A program made the translations under genes and the position numbers. The notes under the pieces are model-generated. The model saw only the letters and a list, made by a program, of their open reading frames with translations. It was not told where the DNA came from and ran no database searches. A DNA stretch of 64,000 nt, from the sequence record PZ445523.1, one strand, 5' to 3'. Origin of the DNA: a phage. Shown piece by piece: positions 26,350 through 36,556 of this stretch (positions are counted from its first letter, which is position 1; the number at the start of each line of letters is the position of its first letter).

Positions 26350-26558
26350 TTTGGTTTACCTTCTTTAACGAAATCAGGATAAGGATAAAATCCTGAATAA
26401 AATCCTTCACCTTTATGATTGATGCATCCTTTATTAGAACAATAGCACCAATAATCGAAATCACAAGCCATTTCATCATTGCATAAAGCAAAAACAACCG
26501 GCCACTTACACTTTTCACAGTGGGCATTTTTAAGAATACTAGTTTGGCTCATAACCAT
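26346..26558 (-). CDS. Cysteine-rich small protein (70 aa)
   Basis: About ten Cys/His in CxxC-like spacing; likely a metal-binding fold. Confidence 0.5.
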   Translation of the reverse strand: MVMSQTSILKNAHCEKCKWPVVFALCNDEMACDFDYWCYCSNKGCINHKGEGFYSGFYPYPDFVKEGKPK

Positions 26559-26776
26559 GTCACCTTTAAGCAGTATTCTTCTACATGTTGTTTACGACCT
26601 TTCTTATCAATAAAGGTATATTCAACGAATGTTCCAATGTAGTCTTTATCTACATCATGTGGACTATTAATTGGACATTTAGTACGGCAAATGCGTTCCC
26701 ATTGACGAATAATTACTGCCTTATTCTTTGGGTCATACGGATGTGGATAATGTATATTCATAATAACGGTTCCCAA
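26549..26776 (-). CDS. Hypothetical protein (75 aa)
   Basis: ORF on the early strand. Confidence 0.45.
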   Translation of the reverse strand: MGTVIMNIHYPHPYDPKNKAVIIRQWERICRTKCPINSPHDVDKDYIGTFVEYTFIDKKGRKQHVEEYCLKVTWL

Positions 26777-30793: not shown

Positions 30794-31267
30794 TTATTTG
30801 AATGATTTAACGTACTGAATAGAACCTTTACTATTCACAAAGGCAATTTTACCATTTTTGTTATACATGGTAGCAGTACGCTGATAGCCATAAGTTTGTT
30901 TACCAGATTGATAACCAACTAATGCAAAATTATCTTCGCCCATTTTATTCTGCTTAGCGCGGATACGTTCATGACCGTGCGCCATAAGAACCTTAGCGTC
31001 GCCAGTTGCAATGGATCTACGAGTTTTTTCATCTTCAACTGTATTAACAAAGTCGTCAAATGAATCAAATTTAGCATGAGATTTATTATACAGTTTTCCA
31101 TCTACTGCATAATTATATCCCTGTACATCCATCTCAACTTCTGTACCATCATCCAATACAGCAGTGATTTTTTGACCTTTTTTAAATTTCAAAAGATCAG
31201 TAAAAGATTCAGCAATAATTTGAGAATTAATAGCTGCTTCAGTAATAAATTCTTGATATGTTTTCAT
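30794..31267 (-). CDS. Internal-protein-like capsid-targeted protein (157 aa)
   Basis: N-terminal capsid-targeting leader MKTYQEFITE followed by AA, as in T4 IPI/IPII/IPIII; payload unrecognised. Confidence 0.6.
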   Translation of the reverse strand: MKTYQEFITEAAINSQIIAESFTDLLKFKKGQKITAVLDDGTEVEMDVQGYNYAVDGKLYNKSHAKFDSFDDFVNTVEDEKTRRSIATGDAKVLMAHGHERIRAKQNKMGEDNFALVGYQSGKQTYGYQRTATMYNKNGKIAFVNSKGSIQYVKSFK

Positions 31268-31752: not shown

Positions 31753-32283
<531 letters not shown>

Positions 32284-32739
32284 TTAAAAGAGGTTGTTCA
32301 TTATTCGGTAAAGCGAAGGACCCATCACATATTGCCACTGAGTACGAGGAATAAGAGCAAAAGCGTCCATCTCTGGAATCATAACGCCATCTTTATTTTC
32401 AAAATAAGACTCGCAGCGGCAATTTCTAAACATCTCATGCTCTACTGGAATCATATAATAAAATAACTGTAGGTCTTTATTACTAGAATATTTAAATACA
32501 CCTAGGTCTTCTAGAAGGTCTGGATTATAATTGCTAAAACCGGTCTCTTCTAAGCATTCTCTTTTTGCAGCTTCCAGTGCATTCAAATCAGAACTTTCTA
32601 CACGCCCCTTTGGAATATCCCAGCGATGTGCCATCATTCCAGGCTTACGAGAACCAGTAACCCGACCCATAAATAAATCTTTATCTTCTGTCATAAAGAT
32701 AATACCAGCTGATAATGTTTTCATTTTAATTTCCTGCAT
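32284..32739 (-). CDS. nudE: Nudix hydrolase NudE
   Basis: Nudix box GRVESSDLNALEAAKRECLEETG; position next to e as in T4. Confidence 0.85.
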   Translation of the reverse strand: MQEIKMKTLSAGIIFMTEDKDLFMGRVTGSRKPGMMAHRWDIPKGRVESSDLNALEAAKRECLEETGFSNYNPDLLEDLGVFKYSSNKDLQLFYYMIPVEHEMFRNCRCESYFENKDGVMIPEMDAFALIPRTQWQYVMGPSLYRIMNNLF

Positions 32740-33209
32740 TCAGCGATAAAGCTATTTAAATTTTGGGTATATTTCTTTTCATCAAAAATCTTTTGTTGTC
32801 TGCGTAAACGCCATGGCATTTCAATGAACACGCACCATATTCCAGATAATATTGCTGCTGTCAAAATATTAACAAGCATAATTAAAAGAATCCAATCTCC
32901 TGTTCTGCCTATTGGACTTTCTCCAAAGAAGCAAAATACGAATGATGACACAGGAAGACTAATGATATACCACAGAATCATAATCTTATTTGTAAACCAA
33001 TCAGCATTTGTTAACTTAGCGCGACCGTTTTGAATACATACGAACTTATCATCTGTTATAGTAGATGGCTTAGCTGCTTGATATCCCATTCTAAACTCCC
33101 TAATCAACAAATTTTTCATATCTTCGGAACAACCATTCCAGTCAACTCTATCAACTGAAATGCCATCATCCCCATCATCTAAATCATACCAGCGAGTTTT
33201 TAAAATCAT
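32721..33209 (-). CDS. Membrane protein (162 aa), tandem paralog 1
   Basis: Two or three transmembrane helices; C-terminal FIAECRKLK motif shared with the next two ORFs. Confidence 0.5.
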   Translation of the reverse strand: MILKTRWYDLDDGDDGISVDRVDWNGCSEDMKNLLIREFRMGYQAAKPSTITDDKFVCIQNGRAKLTNADWFTNKIMILWYIISLPVSSFVFCFFGESPIGRTGDWILLIMLVNILTAAILSGIWCVFIEMPWRLRRQQKIFDEKKYTQNLNSFIAECRKLK

Positions 33210-33568
33210 TTAATTTTCCTACAATCACTCACAAACTCTTCCATTGATTCTTTTTCAATATAAGACATGTAGCTATTATATTCCTTTAATTGTATTTTGT
33301 AATCCTTTTTTCTTTGCCAATTTATTTTAAAATTATCATAATGAAAATATAACATGGTACCAAAGAATGAAAATAATGAAATAATTTTAGTATAGCGAAG
33401 TTCACTCCAAAATTCTATTATATTTACTGTGCCGTCAATGTTTAAAATAAGACAGTCAATTAACAATCCAAAAAGACTACCCGCAAGAGCTGCAAATGCT
33501 GATACGGCAAGAATTAATAGTGCCTCTGGAAACGAATATTTAACTTTATTTAGTTTTGGCTTTTGCAT
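33206..33568 (-). CDS. Membrane protein (120 aa), tandem paralog 2
   Basis: Transmembrane helices; C-terminal FVSDCRKIK. Confidence 0.5.
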   Translation of the reverse strand: MQKPKLNKVKYSFPEALLILAVSAFAALAGSLFGLLIDCLILNIDGTVNIIEFWSELRYTKIISLFSFFGTMLYFHYDNFKINWQRKKDYKIQLKEYNSYMSYIEKESMEEFVSDCRKIK

Positions 33569-33951
33569 CGTGATTCCTTAACAAATTTCATAATTTCATC
33601 AAATTCATACGCAGCAAGTTTAAGCTGATGTTCCTTTTTAATCTTTTTACACTGAGCTTTCCATTCGCGTACGCGTTTACGATAATGTCTTCCTTGATAC
33701 CAGTATCCTACCCAATTTACAGGTACTAATAAAAATGGAACTATCATTGGAAGAAATAGTGTTGACACAAATATTACACCAAATTTATTGGCAGTCATAA
33801 CGTCTATAACCATTCCAACTACAAATGATACAACTACCACAGGACCCATTAATACATCAGTAGAAATTATCTGACGCTTTAATTCATACTTCAACGGTTT
33901 ACTTGGAAGGTATAGTGATGGTTTTGACATATTCTCTACATTCCTTAACAA
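33550..33951 (-). CDS. Membrane protein (133 aa), tandem paralog 3
   Basis: Transmembrane helices; C-terminal FVKESRCK. Confidence 0.5.
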   Translation of the reverse strand: MLRNVENMSKPSLYLPSKPLKYELKRQIISTDVLMGPVVVVSFVVGMVIDVMTANKFGVIFVSTLFLPMIVPFLLVPVNWVGYWYQGRHYRKRVREWKAQCKKIKKEHQLKLAAYEFDEIMKFVKESRCKSQN

Positions 33952-34507
33952 ATTTTTCTAGTAATAAATCGCTTTCAAAATTGGGATTTTCTACGAATTT
34001 ATCAAAAAGATCATCAACAATAGTTAAGATATTCTTTTTACTAAGAATACGTTTATTTTCATGCTTCGTTTCAGAATCAACTATAAGAGTAAAGAAATAT
34101 TTCTTTCCCTGAAATTTTACAGTAGTATCAATATAGAATAAATTTGACTTTTGTAAATTACGTTTAAACCATGCATCACTTAAACTATAAACGCCAAGAT
34201 AATCATAATCGTCGTTTAAATAACAGACCGTCCATTCAGGAGAAACAAAATCAGTAAATTCAACGTCAAAATCGCATGTTAATAAATGAATTGATTCAAT
34301 ACTGTTAATAAGTATTCCAGGACGTATTAAAGACTTTTTACCTCTAGAAAATCTTCCAGAAAGACTTTCATCAGTTTCATATGAAGAACCCCAATAATAA
34401 TTACGTCCTTCTGCCATACGTTTAAGAGCATTTAATAATTGGTCTGGAACATCAACCTGTCTTTGAAACTCTTCAAACATTGAATTGAAATCACTTTGCA
34501 TTTTCAT
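33899..34507 (-). CDS. Hypothetical protein (202 aa)
   Basis: ORF on the early strand. Confidence 0.5.
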   Translation of the reverse strand: MKMQSDFNSMFEEFQRQVDVPDQLLNALKRMAEGRNYYWGSSYETDESLSGRFSRGKKSLIRPGILINSIESIHLLTCDFDVEFTDFVSPEWTVCYLNDDYDYLGVYSLSDAWFKRNLQKSNLFYIDTTVKFQGKKYFFTLIVDSETKHENKRILSKKNILTIVDDLFDKFVENPNFESDLLLEKFVKECREYVKTITIPSK

Positions 34508-34526
34508 TCCTATTTACTCCAAGTAA

Positions 34527-34542
34527 TAGGGGCCGAAGCCCC
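34527..34542 (-). terminator. Stem-loop with UUCG tetraloop
   Basis: Minus-strand AGGGGCUUCGGCCCCU between two genes. Confidence 0.45.
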
Positions 34543-34548
34543 TTATCA

Positions 34549-35142
34549 TTATTTCAGAGAATTAATGTATTCCTGAACATCGGCAGAGGTAGTTTCAACC
34601 CCAGAAATATTACCGTTAAAGGTTTCAACTCGAGCAAGAGTATCTTCAATATCAACCTTAGTCAGTGCTGCAATTTCAACTACATCATCAGCAGTACTAA
34701 TTCCAAGGGCATTCGCGGCGCGAGTTTCACGGATATATTCCAATTTAATTGCAAGTTCTTGGCGAGCATCATCTAGCTCAACTACTTTCTTGGCGATTTC
34801 AATTCGCATTTCAGCATAACCATCAGCTTTAGTAGTCAACTGCTCAGCTGTTCGACGATATAGTAAACCGAGTTTAGCATGCATTGTTACATCTTGACCT
34901 TCGGAAAGAAGCTTGCGAATTTCACGCTCTTTTGATTCGGCCTGCTTATTCTTTTCGACAATAAGTTCACGAATACGCTTTTCTTCATTAATAGATTTAA
35001 CGGAAGCAGTTTTTAGATCTTTAATCTTATCAAGTAGTTTTGCTGCTGCAGCAGTATACTGTTCTTCAACAGATAGATTTTTAGCCATAGCAGAACCAAG
35101 TTTAGTGCGAATAAACTCAACAATTTTCTTCAGTGTGTTCAT
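34549..35142 (-). CDS. Coiled-coil protein (197 aa), possibly PspA/IM30-like
   Basis: Almost entirely heptad-repeat helical, with charged K/E/R-rich segments. Confidence 0.45.
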
Positions 35143-36094: not shown

Positions 36095-36556
36095 TTATTT
36101 GATTTGTTTAGCAGACCAAATGCGGTCTTTAATAATTTTTTGGATGTCTTCAACATACTCTAGGTCATGAGCATGTGGATTATCTTTGAAACTATGAGCT
36201 CGCGCAAGTTTCTGGCCTTCGGTCTTAATTATCAAAAGTTCTTTAAGAATTGCTTCATATCTAGAGATAATTCCTTTAGCAATATTTTTTTCTTGTGCTG
36301 CTTTAGGGTCAGCCTTAGGAGCAGGTTTACCAGAAGGTTTTTCGAAAGCCGCACCAGTAGCAACCAGGCTTTTCCAGGCGGTGGTAACATAGTTACCCAC
36401 AAAGCCTTCAGCTCTCATATCGTCATAGAACTTGTACCGAGATTCGTCAGAAGCATCTTTATAAGAATATTTACCAGCTTTAATAGCAGCAGTTGCTACA
36501 GCGCGAACATCTGAAGCGGATGCTTCGGTCATTAAAAATTGAGCATAAGTTTTCAT
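36095..36556 (-). CDS. Internal-protein-like capsid-targeted protein (153 aa)
   Basis: N-terminal leader MKTYAQFLMTE followed by ASA; flanked on both sides by the identical 32-nt hairpin. Confidence 0.55.
   Translation of the reverse strand: MKTYAQFLMTEASASDVRAVATAAIKAGKYSYKDASDESRYKFYDDMRAEGFVGNYVTTAWKSLVATGAAFEKPSGKPAPKADPKAAQEKNIAKGIISRYEAILKELLIIKTEGQKLARAHSFKDNPHAHDLEYVEDIQKIIKDRIWSAKQIK

Follow-up and report, generated by a model that had tools for sequence, protein, structure and literature searches.

In Bacillus subtilis, a small membrane protein, LiaI, anchors a PspA homologue, LiaH, to the membrane. A comparable arrangement is found in the phage shock protein (Psp) systems of Escherichia coli and Yersinia enterocolitica, in which the small inner-membrane proteins PspB and PspC are encoded beside a gene of the PspA family and PspC's C-terminal domain, which is cytoplasmic, binds PspA (PMC5596341). 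The Psp reviews that were text-searched make no mention of PspA, or of partners of PspA, being encoded by a phage. Here, we describe a locus in a 64,000-nucleotide stretch of phage DNA (sequence record PZ445523.1; the whole stretch is called the window below) in which e.6, a gene for a homologue of PspA and Vipp1, is followed by e.5, which encodes a soluble protein, and by e.4, e.3 and e.2, which encode small predicted membrane proteins. A short C-terminal motif, exact in three of the four downstream products and degenerate in e.4, is the subject of this analysis.

The window comes from a T4-like phage of the genus Tequatrovirus: its positions 32200-34600 share 95-96% identity with phages that include FL12 and RB18, and a similarity search found 496 phage records that span at least 80% of that interval. 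The gene order on the minus strand, denV, e, nudE, e.2, e.3, e.4, e.5 and e.6, is the same as that of T4 (NC_000866), and the tRNA cluster is located further upstream of e.6, again in agreement with T4. A preliminary description of this DNA had reported three tandem paralogous membrane proteins. All three open reading frames (ORFs) are present on the minus strand; their place, with e.5 on one side and nudE/e on the other, and their strand are those of T4, and they match T4 e.2, e.3 and e.4 in sequence and order. They are thus previously annotated T4 ORFs, not new genes, and the T4 annotation labels each of them as 'conserved hypothetical, predicted membrane protein'. Each has a full-length match to a PHROG of its own (2203 for e.2, E 1.6e-77; 2330 for e.3, E 6.5e-58; 2604 for e.4, E 9.1e-64), and database homologues of e.2 and e.4 bear, as precomputed labels, two distinct Pfam families, PF26896 and PF26873, respectively. 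The five genes concerned, with the basis of each assignment, are as follows:

32721..33209, minus strand: e.2, 162 amino acids (aa); ORF list, PHROG 2203, Pfam PF26896 on homologues, hydropathy and charge
33206..33568, minus strand: e.3, 120 aa; ORF list, PHROG 2330, hydropathy and charge, full-length profile match to e.4
33550..33930, minus strand: e.4, 126 aa; ORF list, PHROG 2604, T4 annotation, hydropathy and charge
33899..34507, minus strand: e.5, soluble, 202 aa; ORF list and PHROG scan; overlaps the e.4 start by 32 nt
34549..35142, minus strand: e.6, PspA/Vipp1 homologue, 197 aa; profile, Pfam, AlphaFold 2 (AF2) with Foldseek, and a cited HHpred result

From e.5 through e.2 to the start of nudE, each gene overlaps the next by 4-32 nt. 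The bounds given earlier for e.2 and e.3 stand. The upstream end given for e.4, a TTG at 33951, is probably too far out, and the ATG at 33930 (MSKPSLYL) is preferred, since the PHROG 2604 profile, which starts at residue 8 of the longer ORF, and the T4 annotation both begin there.

The motif, Φ-x-x-F-[IV]-x-x-C-R, is exact in e.2, which ends in FIAECRKLK, and in e.3, which ends in FVSDCRKIK. In e.4 it is degenerate: the protein ends in FVKESRCKSQN, with Ser at the position of Cys, and has an internal CKKIK. Thus, the shared CRK motif that was said, in this or a similar form, to end all three membrane proteins holds exactly for two of them. The soluble e.5, which had not been listed with them, bears the motif as FVKECR (FVKECREYV and onward; FVKECREYVKTITIPSK) 11 residues before its stop, so the motif, although present among the tandem membrane proteins, is not a membrane-protein signature. 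In the T4 genome, the pattern [FW][IV]..C[RK] has 3 matches in 77,176 aa of six-frame ORFs; these are e.5, e.3 and the remnant of a frameshifted e.2, each 9-17 residues from a stop. A looser pattern, [FWYLIMV][IVL]..C[RK], has 5 matches in the ORFs of the window, three of which are e.5, e.3 and e.2. The frequency of the motif in this cluster is far above chance.

How far does the motif extend beyond Tequatrovirus? Syntenic genes from nine other genera were clustered together with 45 IMG/VR loci anchored on e.6, which served far better for recovering related loci than e.3, an anchor that gave 4 close loci. In each genus examined, the e.5 homologue has the motif at its C-terminus or close to it, and in many genera one to four more proteins have it as well, most of them membrane proteins with two helices and some of them small and soluble. 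The 45 loci contain 126 occurrences of the motif in 213,041 aa of six-frame ORFs. All but three of these (123/126) lie at most 30 residues from the C-terminus, 122 of them on the e.6 strand and downstream of e.6, and the 6 kb upstream of e.6 in the same loci contain none. When a tail is defined in this way, as [FW]-[IV]-x-x-C-[RK] within 30 residues of the C-terminus, downstream of e.6 and on the same strand, e.2, e.3 and e.5 of the window have one. The intact gene directly after e.6 has the motif in 41 of the 45 loci; in two of the exceptions e.5 is frameshifted, and in the other two the motif reads F-[IV]-x-Y-C-I. In T4-like phages the motif is limited to genes just downstream of e.6. e.5 is broken by frameshifts in two phage genomes that are otherwise intact (L005/L020 and L048), and thus it is at least occasionally dispensable in nature.

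The conservation of the motif is best seen in the e.5 family, in which a ten-sequence alignment (12-47% identity) has F186 and C190 as its only invariant residues besides Met1. Three positions before the Phe, 22 of 28 sequences have a hydrophobic residue (24 if Ala is included); positions -3, 0, +1 and +4 would make one face of a helix, and the common piece is predicted to be helical. Within Tequatrovirus, comparison of 4-6 genomes points to strong purifying selection on the tails, whose ratio of nonsynonymous to synonymous substitution (dN/dS) is 0.05-0.15 at normal dS, and to fast evolution of the transmembrane (TM) and loop parts, with a dN/dS of 0.4-1.1 that is near 1 in e.4 and reaches 2.1 in an 8-codon loop of e.2. 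The motif itself is selected as protein, because its Arg is coded across genera by all of AGA, AGG, CGA, CGC, CGT and CGG, because many e.5 homologues keep it 15-25 residues before the stop, far from the downstream start, and because dS in the motif codons of e.2 and e.3, 0.18-0.20, is similar to that of the remainder of each gene. A common C-terminal motif selected as protein and its exclusive association with e.6 both appear to be new in the searched literature.

The membrane proteins carrying these tails were examined by Kyte-Doolittle scans, which find two hydrophobic helices in each; of the two or three TM helices first proposed, two are borne out. The e.2 protein has an N-terminal soluble domain of about 75 aa, TM helices at about 76-96 and 105-129, and a basic tail that runs to the motif. 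Hairpins are predicted for e.3 (TM1 about 15-42 and a weaker TM2 about 59-77, followed by the conserved tail) and for e.4 (about 28-46 and 53-73, followed by a long basic tail). The N-terminal tails of e.3 and e.4 and all three C-terminal tails are basic, with neutral or acidic loops, a charge pattern that fits the positive-inside rule. All three are thus predicted to be two-helix inner-membrane hairpins with N- and C-termini in the cytoplasm. A low-confidence AF2 model of e.2 draws TM2 and the tail as a single long helix. An intact 162-aa e.2 is present in the window and most relatives, and a truncated form is found in other phages besides T4 (P0094, 22 members).

The three proteins had been taken for paralogues, a claim that was to fall if pairwise alignment gave no significant similarity. 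By direct alignment the claim fails: BLASTP among e.2, e.3 and e.4 aligns just the last 14-21 residues (E 0.007-0.05), hhalign with Tequatrovirus-only alignments finds only the tail of 13-15 residues, with probabilities of 9%, 1.8% and 1.3%, and homologue searches with each protein retrieved close matches (62-100% identity) and neither of the other two families. Profiles enriched with the cross-genus set tell more, although the membrane proteins in that comparison were selected for having the motif, which makes motif-only alignments circular. With these profiles e.3 and e.4 align over 117 columns (96% probability, P 5.6e-9) and, with the last 16 residues cut, still over 97 columns (85% probability, P 5.7e-6), beyond all reversed-sequence decoys, none of which fell below P 0.0048 in 120 comparisons. 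Therefore, e.3 and e.4 are probably true, very divergent full-length paralogues. When the motif is trimmed, e.2 gives P 0.018 against e.3 and P 0.062 against e.4, with no signal outside the last ~17 residues; at the level of these profiles, e.2 is not demonstrably paralogous to the other two, and the common part is its tail end.

Two side observations concern the same families. In Escherichia phage vB_EcoM-UFV05 (P0096), e.3 is deleted and e.4 is naturally fused in frame to e.2; the fusion joins inside TM1 at a short common PV..SFV stretch, and the 106-aa product is a two-helix protein with the e.2 tail. NCBI labels several e.3/e.4 homologues 'sulfurtransferase' (P0001, P0016, P0111, P0133, P0147 and others) and one e.3 homologue 'DNA primase'. 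Neither name has domain support, and both look like errors passed on from one annotation to another; it is curious that the host psp operon includes a sulfurtransferase, PspE.

The closest neighbour that offers a clue is e.6, which is found in 1,100 phage records and keeps its place upstream of all genes that bear the motif; e.5 comes after it even when the genes around them are different. It is a homologue of PspA and Vipp1, members of the ESCRT-III superfamily. When the e.6 family profile is compared with Protein Data Bank (PDB) sequences, the top three matches are Vipp1 (E 0.03-0.08), collinear from residue 4, and the e.6 homologue of phage GAP161 matches Pfam PspA_IM30 with E 4e-4, below the gathering score. 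A single-sequence AF2 model of e.6, with a predicted local distance difference test score (pLDDT) of 74.6, is a helical hairpin with one more helix, and the top 11 PDB matches found with it by Foldseek are all Vipp1 (best E 3e-4). A genome announcement reports an HHpred probability of 99.9% for an e.6 homologue against E. coli PspA (4WHE; PMC7862958), and this one sentence is the only mention of e.6 as a PspA relative found in the literature. A single-sequence search of PDB sequences gave nothing for e.6, and a search with e.5 gave noise only. The N-terminal amphipathic helix of e.6 (35101-35121, minus strand; residues 8-14) reads V-E-F-I-R-T-K, with F10 and K14 invariant in the family and R12 at least 90% conserved, and bears a superficial likeness to the E-F-I-x-x-C-R-K tails.

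The best explanation overall, which we put forward tentatively by analogy with the membrane partners of PspA, is that the tails are docking helices that would join e.5 and PspC/LiaI-like membrane anchors to a polymer of e.6. The motif helix would be the common docking element tying e.5 and the variable anchors to that polymer or to one another, and the resulting module would act during infection to keep the inner membrane and the proton-motive force stable or to repair them. Like PspB and PspC, the membrane proteins here are small, are predicted to lie in the inner membrane as hairpins with conserved cytoplasmic C-terminal tails, and are encoded near a PspA-family gene, 0.4-2.4 kb downstream of e.6 on the same strand. 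Unlike PspB and PspC, they have no sequence or profile similarity to known partners of PspA, are encoded by a phage, and vary between genera from one to four anchors. The tail motif is common to the anchors and to the soluble e.5, which has no counterpart in the Psp system, and there is no PspF-type regulator. Homology between e.2-e.4 and LiaI is likewise not detectable, and we know of no FIxxCR-type tail in LiaI. A role in membrane integrity, which the preliminary description had approached from the lysozyme gene, is plausible by this other route through e.6.

A wider version, in which the motif helix would be a portable tag for docking to a phage-encoded polymer of the ESCRT-III/PspA kind within a membrane-maintenance system run by the phage, we regard as rather doubtful. 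Here the soluble adaptor e.5 and the fast-evolving, genus-specific anchors (e.2, e.3, e.4 and their counterparts) would position the e.6 polymer on the inner membrane of the host, and in this way the proton-motive force would be sustained in infection, during prolonged lysis inhibition or under attack by abortive-infection systems that depolarise the membrane.

Several observations weigh against the docking proposal. Its link to e.6 is drawn from conserved gene order, in genomes whose gene order is conserved anyway. The more distant genera sampled (Aeromonas phage 65, AhFM11 and the GAP161/RB43 group) have e.6 and e.5 and no motif-bearing membrane proteins, and thus e.6 can function without the anchors. 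The motif is not uniform: Cys gives way to S, I or V in the e.4 lineage and to Ser, Ile, Val or Met in several further membrane members, and Arg is replaced by Ile in two Aeromonas-phage loci. Laboratory T4 has an e.2 that a frameshift cuts to 102 aa and that lacks a complete hairpin (L001 3153-3461; T4 67472-67582), and a 36-aa C-terminal remnant still codes FITECRKLK. No match of e.2-e.4 to PspB, PspC, LiaI or any other family was found with Pfam and NCBIfam at E <= 0.1, noise aside, or with PADLOC. Modelled by AF2 on a shallow alignment, e.2 reaches a pLDDT of 52, too low for a fold search. To these may be added the small sample of genomes behind the dN/dS values and the selection of the profiled membrane proteins by their motif.

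The membrane proteins might instead be independent accessory proteins of the type of T4 Imm and Sp, acting in superinfection exclusion or against membrane-based host defences, as the preliminary description had suggested. The variable membrane and periplasmic parts would then meet changing targets, and the tail would bind a cytoplasmic factor of the host instead of e.6 or e.5. In T4, e.2-e.6 give early RNAs and each of the five proteins is detected in infection (PMC9697503 supplement), and CRISPRi-ART guides against them are scored 'Not fit', that is, without measurable fitness effect (PMC11879866 supplement). Small, early-transcribed, translated and dispensable in the laboratory, e.2, e.3 and e.4 thus resemble Imm and Sp, and their membrane-embedded character, the dN/dS near 1 in the TM and loop parts of e.4 and of 2.1 in the e.2 loop, and the difference among genera in the number and kind of such genes also fit this alternative. 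Imm, like them, is a two-helix hairpin, and T4 Imm (26373-26624) is the next-best match of the profile hidden Markov models of e.3 and e.4 after each other, with E 0.017 and 0.08 among ~1,100 ORFs. However, this is a non-significant 11-bit alignment of hydrophobic hairpins over two helices; Imm has no conserved cytoplasmic tail or motif, and homology to Imm was rejected as a weak hydrophobic match. Neither PADLOC (E <= 0.1) nor the functional categories of PHROG gave a match; Pfam, NCBIfam and PADLOC scans of e.2-e.6 as a whole found nothing meaningful, and gene-name searches of the literature found no functional study of e.2-e.5. The alternative also leaves unexplained why a soluble protein fixed beside e.6 should have the motif as its most conserved feature. 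We consider it unlikely.

Alternatively, the motif could be a by-product of signals at the gene junctions (Shine-Dalgarno sequences, AU-rich spacers and ATGA overlaps) in proteins without a common partner, or its DNA could be a short recombination linker for in-frame shuffling of ORFs. The motif codons lie as follows:

32733..32750, minus strand: e.2 motif codons F-I-A-E-C-R; the next AGGAAA is the Shine-Dalgarno sequence of the start at 32724, an ATG that shares bases with the e.2 stop (ATGA)
33218..33235, minus strand: e.3 motif codons F-V-S-D-C-R; the next AGGAAAATTAAATGA has the Shine-Dalgarno sequence and the e.2 start, overlapping the e.3 stop
33568..33585, minus strand: e.4 degenerate motif codons F-V-K-E-S-R, in a copy of a 16-nt repeat; AAGGAA is the Shine-Dalgarno sequence for e.3
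33935..33952, minus strand: e.5 motif codons F-V-K-E-C-R, within the second copy of the 16-nt repeat

At every junction inspected, AGGAAA (Arg-Lys), AAGGAA (Lys-Glu) or CGA/AGA-GGT (Arg-Gly) is found 5-10 nt before the next ATG, and several junctions have the ATGA overlap of stop and start. The 16-nt exact direct repeat AAATTTGTTAAGGAAT (33573-33588 and 33940-33955, minus strand) lies at the ends of e.4 and e.5 in the same frame (K-F-V-K-E); 0.01 would be expected by chance, and there is no further copy in the 64 kb. A degenerate DNA pattern for the motif, having been derived from the three sites that it found, shows only its absence elsewhere in the window. dS is about 0 at the ends of e.4 and e.5, where the next gene overlaps, and recombination at promoter-early stem-loops (PeSLs) is on record in T4-like phages (PMC2839356, PMC4122927). 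These points favour constraint on the nucleic acid, and the repeat and the junction signals may indeed ease in-frame recombination. However, a Shine-Dalgarno sequence cannot account for Phe, Ile/Val and Cys, and the codon variation, the distance at which many e.5 homologues keep the motif from the stop, its retention without any overlapping gene in KMI13_212, the normal dS in e.2 and e.3, and the invariance of F and C in the e.5 family all speak for the peptide; the single natural fusion seen, in P0096, joins within TM1 and not at the motif. The junction signals thus explain the residues after Cys-Arg and not the core motif. An origin of the motif solely at the RNA or DNA level was rejected on its codon variation, normal dS and position, and this alternative as a whole we hold to be improbable. 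Under the docking proposal, the same codons would also give the Shine-Dalgarno sequence and start of the next gene, a secondary constraint on the residues that follow Cys-Arg.

PeSLs are short conserved elements at gene boundaries that may mediate modular shuffling (PMC2839356, PMC4122927). Unlike these intergenic elements, which consist of a promoter and a terminator, the element described here lies in overlapping genes, is coding, and is selected as a peptide. Promoter-like matches at the locus number 23, against 18.7 ± 4.6 in shuffled sequence, and the sole stem-loop is the following:

34528..34543, minus strand: GC-rich stem-loop GGGGCUUCGGCCCC, in the gap from the e.6 stop to the e.5 start

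PeSL-type cassettes were rejected, there being no intergenic space or promoter-like signal at the junctions.

The preliminary description had placed the three genes next to the lysozyme gene and considered lysis inhibition. The genes in question are:

31753-32247, minus strand: e (lysozyme); ORF list and T4 comparison
32284-32739, minus strand: nudE, which separates e.2 from e; ORF list and T4 comparison

As regulators of lysis timing, the products of e.2-e.4 would be antiholin-like proteins or accessories of lysis inhibition encoded near the endolysin gene. They do share a co-directional block with e, and changes in the energisation of the membrane would alter the triggering of holin. Their position nevertheless counts for little, since nudE lies in between and the e.x transcripts are early ones, at odds with the late expression expected of holins and antiholins. 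Other genera have 3-6 unrelated genes separating these ORFs from nudE or e; in T4 the known lysis genes (t, rI, rIII and pseT.2/3) are dispersed over other parts of the genome; and neither Pfam nor the lysis category of PHROG gave any similarity to holin or antiholin families. No evidence links e.2-e.4 to lysozyme or to lysis, and we judge this explanation quite improbable. As to nudE itself, it has two candidate ATGs: the annotated upstream one (32739, minus strand) has no good Shine-Dalgarno sequence, and the second (32724, minus strand), which has AGGAAATTAAAATG and overlaps the e.2 stop as ATGA, may be the true start.

That the Cys-Arg pair is a chemical site (for metal binding, ADP-ribosylation-type modification or catalysis) rather than a docking surface is very improbable: the Cys is invariant and the Arg nearly so in the e.5 family, and NudE, which according to the T4 annotation hydrolyses ADP-ribose and NADH, is encoded in the same block, but the Cys replacements in the e.4 lineage, on account of which a catalytic or metal-binding Cys was judged unlikely, and in several other membrane members, the Ile for Arg in two loci, and the position of the Cys on a hydrophobic face with Phe and Ile all argue against it.

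Terminal peptides shared by otherwise unrelated proteins have a precedent in the same hyperplastic region of T4, where a terminal peptide of about 10 residues, common to the otherwise unrelated, fast-evolving proteins IpI, IpII and IpIII, serves as an address tag. The motif is like this capsid targeting sequence in being short, terminal and carried by otherwise unrelated proteins. It differs in that the Ip tag stands at the N-terminus, is cut by the prohead protease and directs proteins to the capsid, whereas the motif is C-terminal and is found on early cytoplasmic and membrane proteins. Two internal-protein-like ORFs of the window (30794-31267 and 36095-36556, both on the minus strand) open with the capsid-targeting-type sequences MKTYQEFITEA and MKTYAQFLMTEA; the second sits between e.8 and the tRNA cluster, a place in which T4 lacks a gene of this kind. 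The resemblance of the letters EFI-x-E in these N-termini to the tail motif is judged to be probably a coincidence, since the residue before the Cys is not conserved.

Genera other than Tequatrovirus have, between an e.3-like gene and nudE, a second tandem family: two to four soluble proteins, 65-129 aa long, all with W-(V/I/L)-S-S-S-x-x-C or a close variant directly before the stop, whose TAA is often within TAAGGA. It occurs at L006 5945-6739, L007 5519-6764, L008 5716-6790, L010 5299-5825 and L011 5553-6576, and in neither the window nor T4.

About half of the genes of T4 have no known function, and for decades the e.2-e.8 block has been a blank in the annotation. One peptide motif, confined to genes behind a PspA homologue, ties e.5 to e.2-e.4 and thereby turns five orphan genes into one testable hypothesis. 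Should the docking proposal prove wrong, the motif would still mark a clear and easily searched family across Straboviridae. If it is right, a virus would be supplying its own membrane-repair module of the ESCRT-III type with interchangeable anchors, which would bear on how lytic phages hold the membrane energised until lysis and might resist defences that collapse it.

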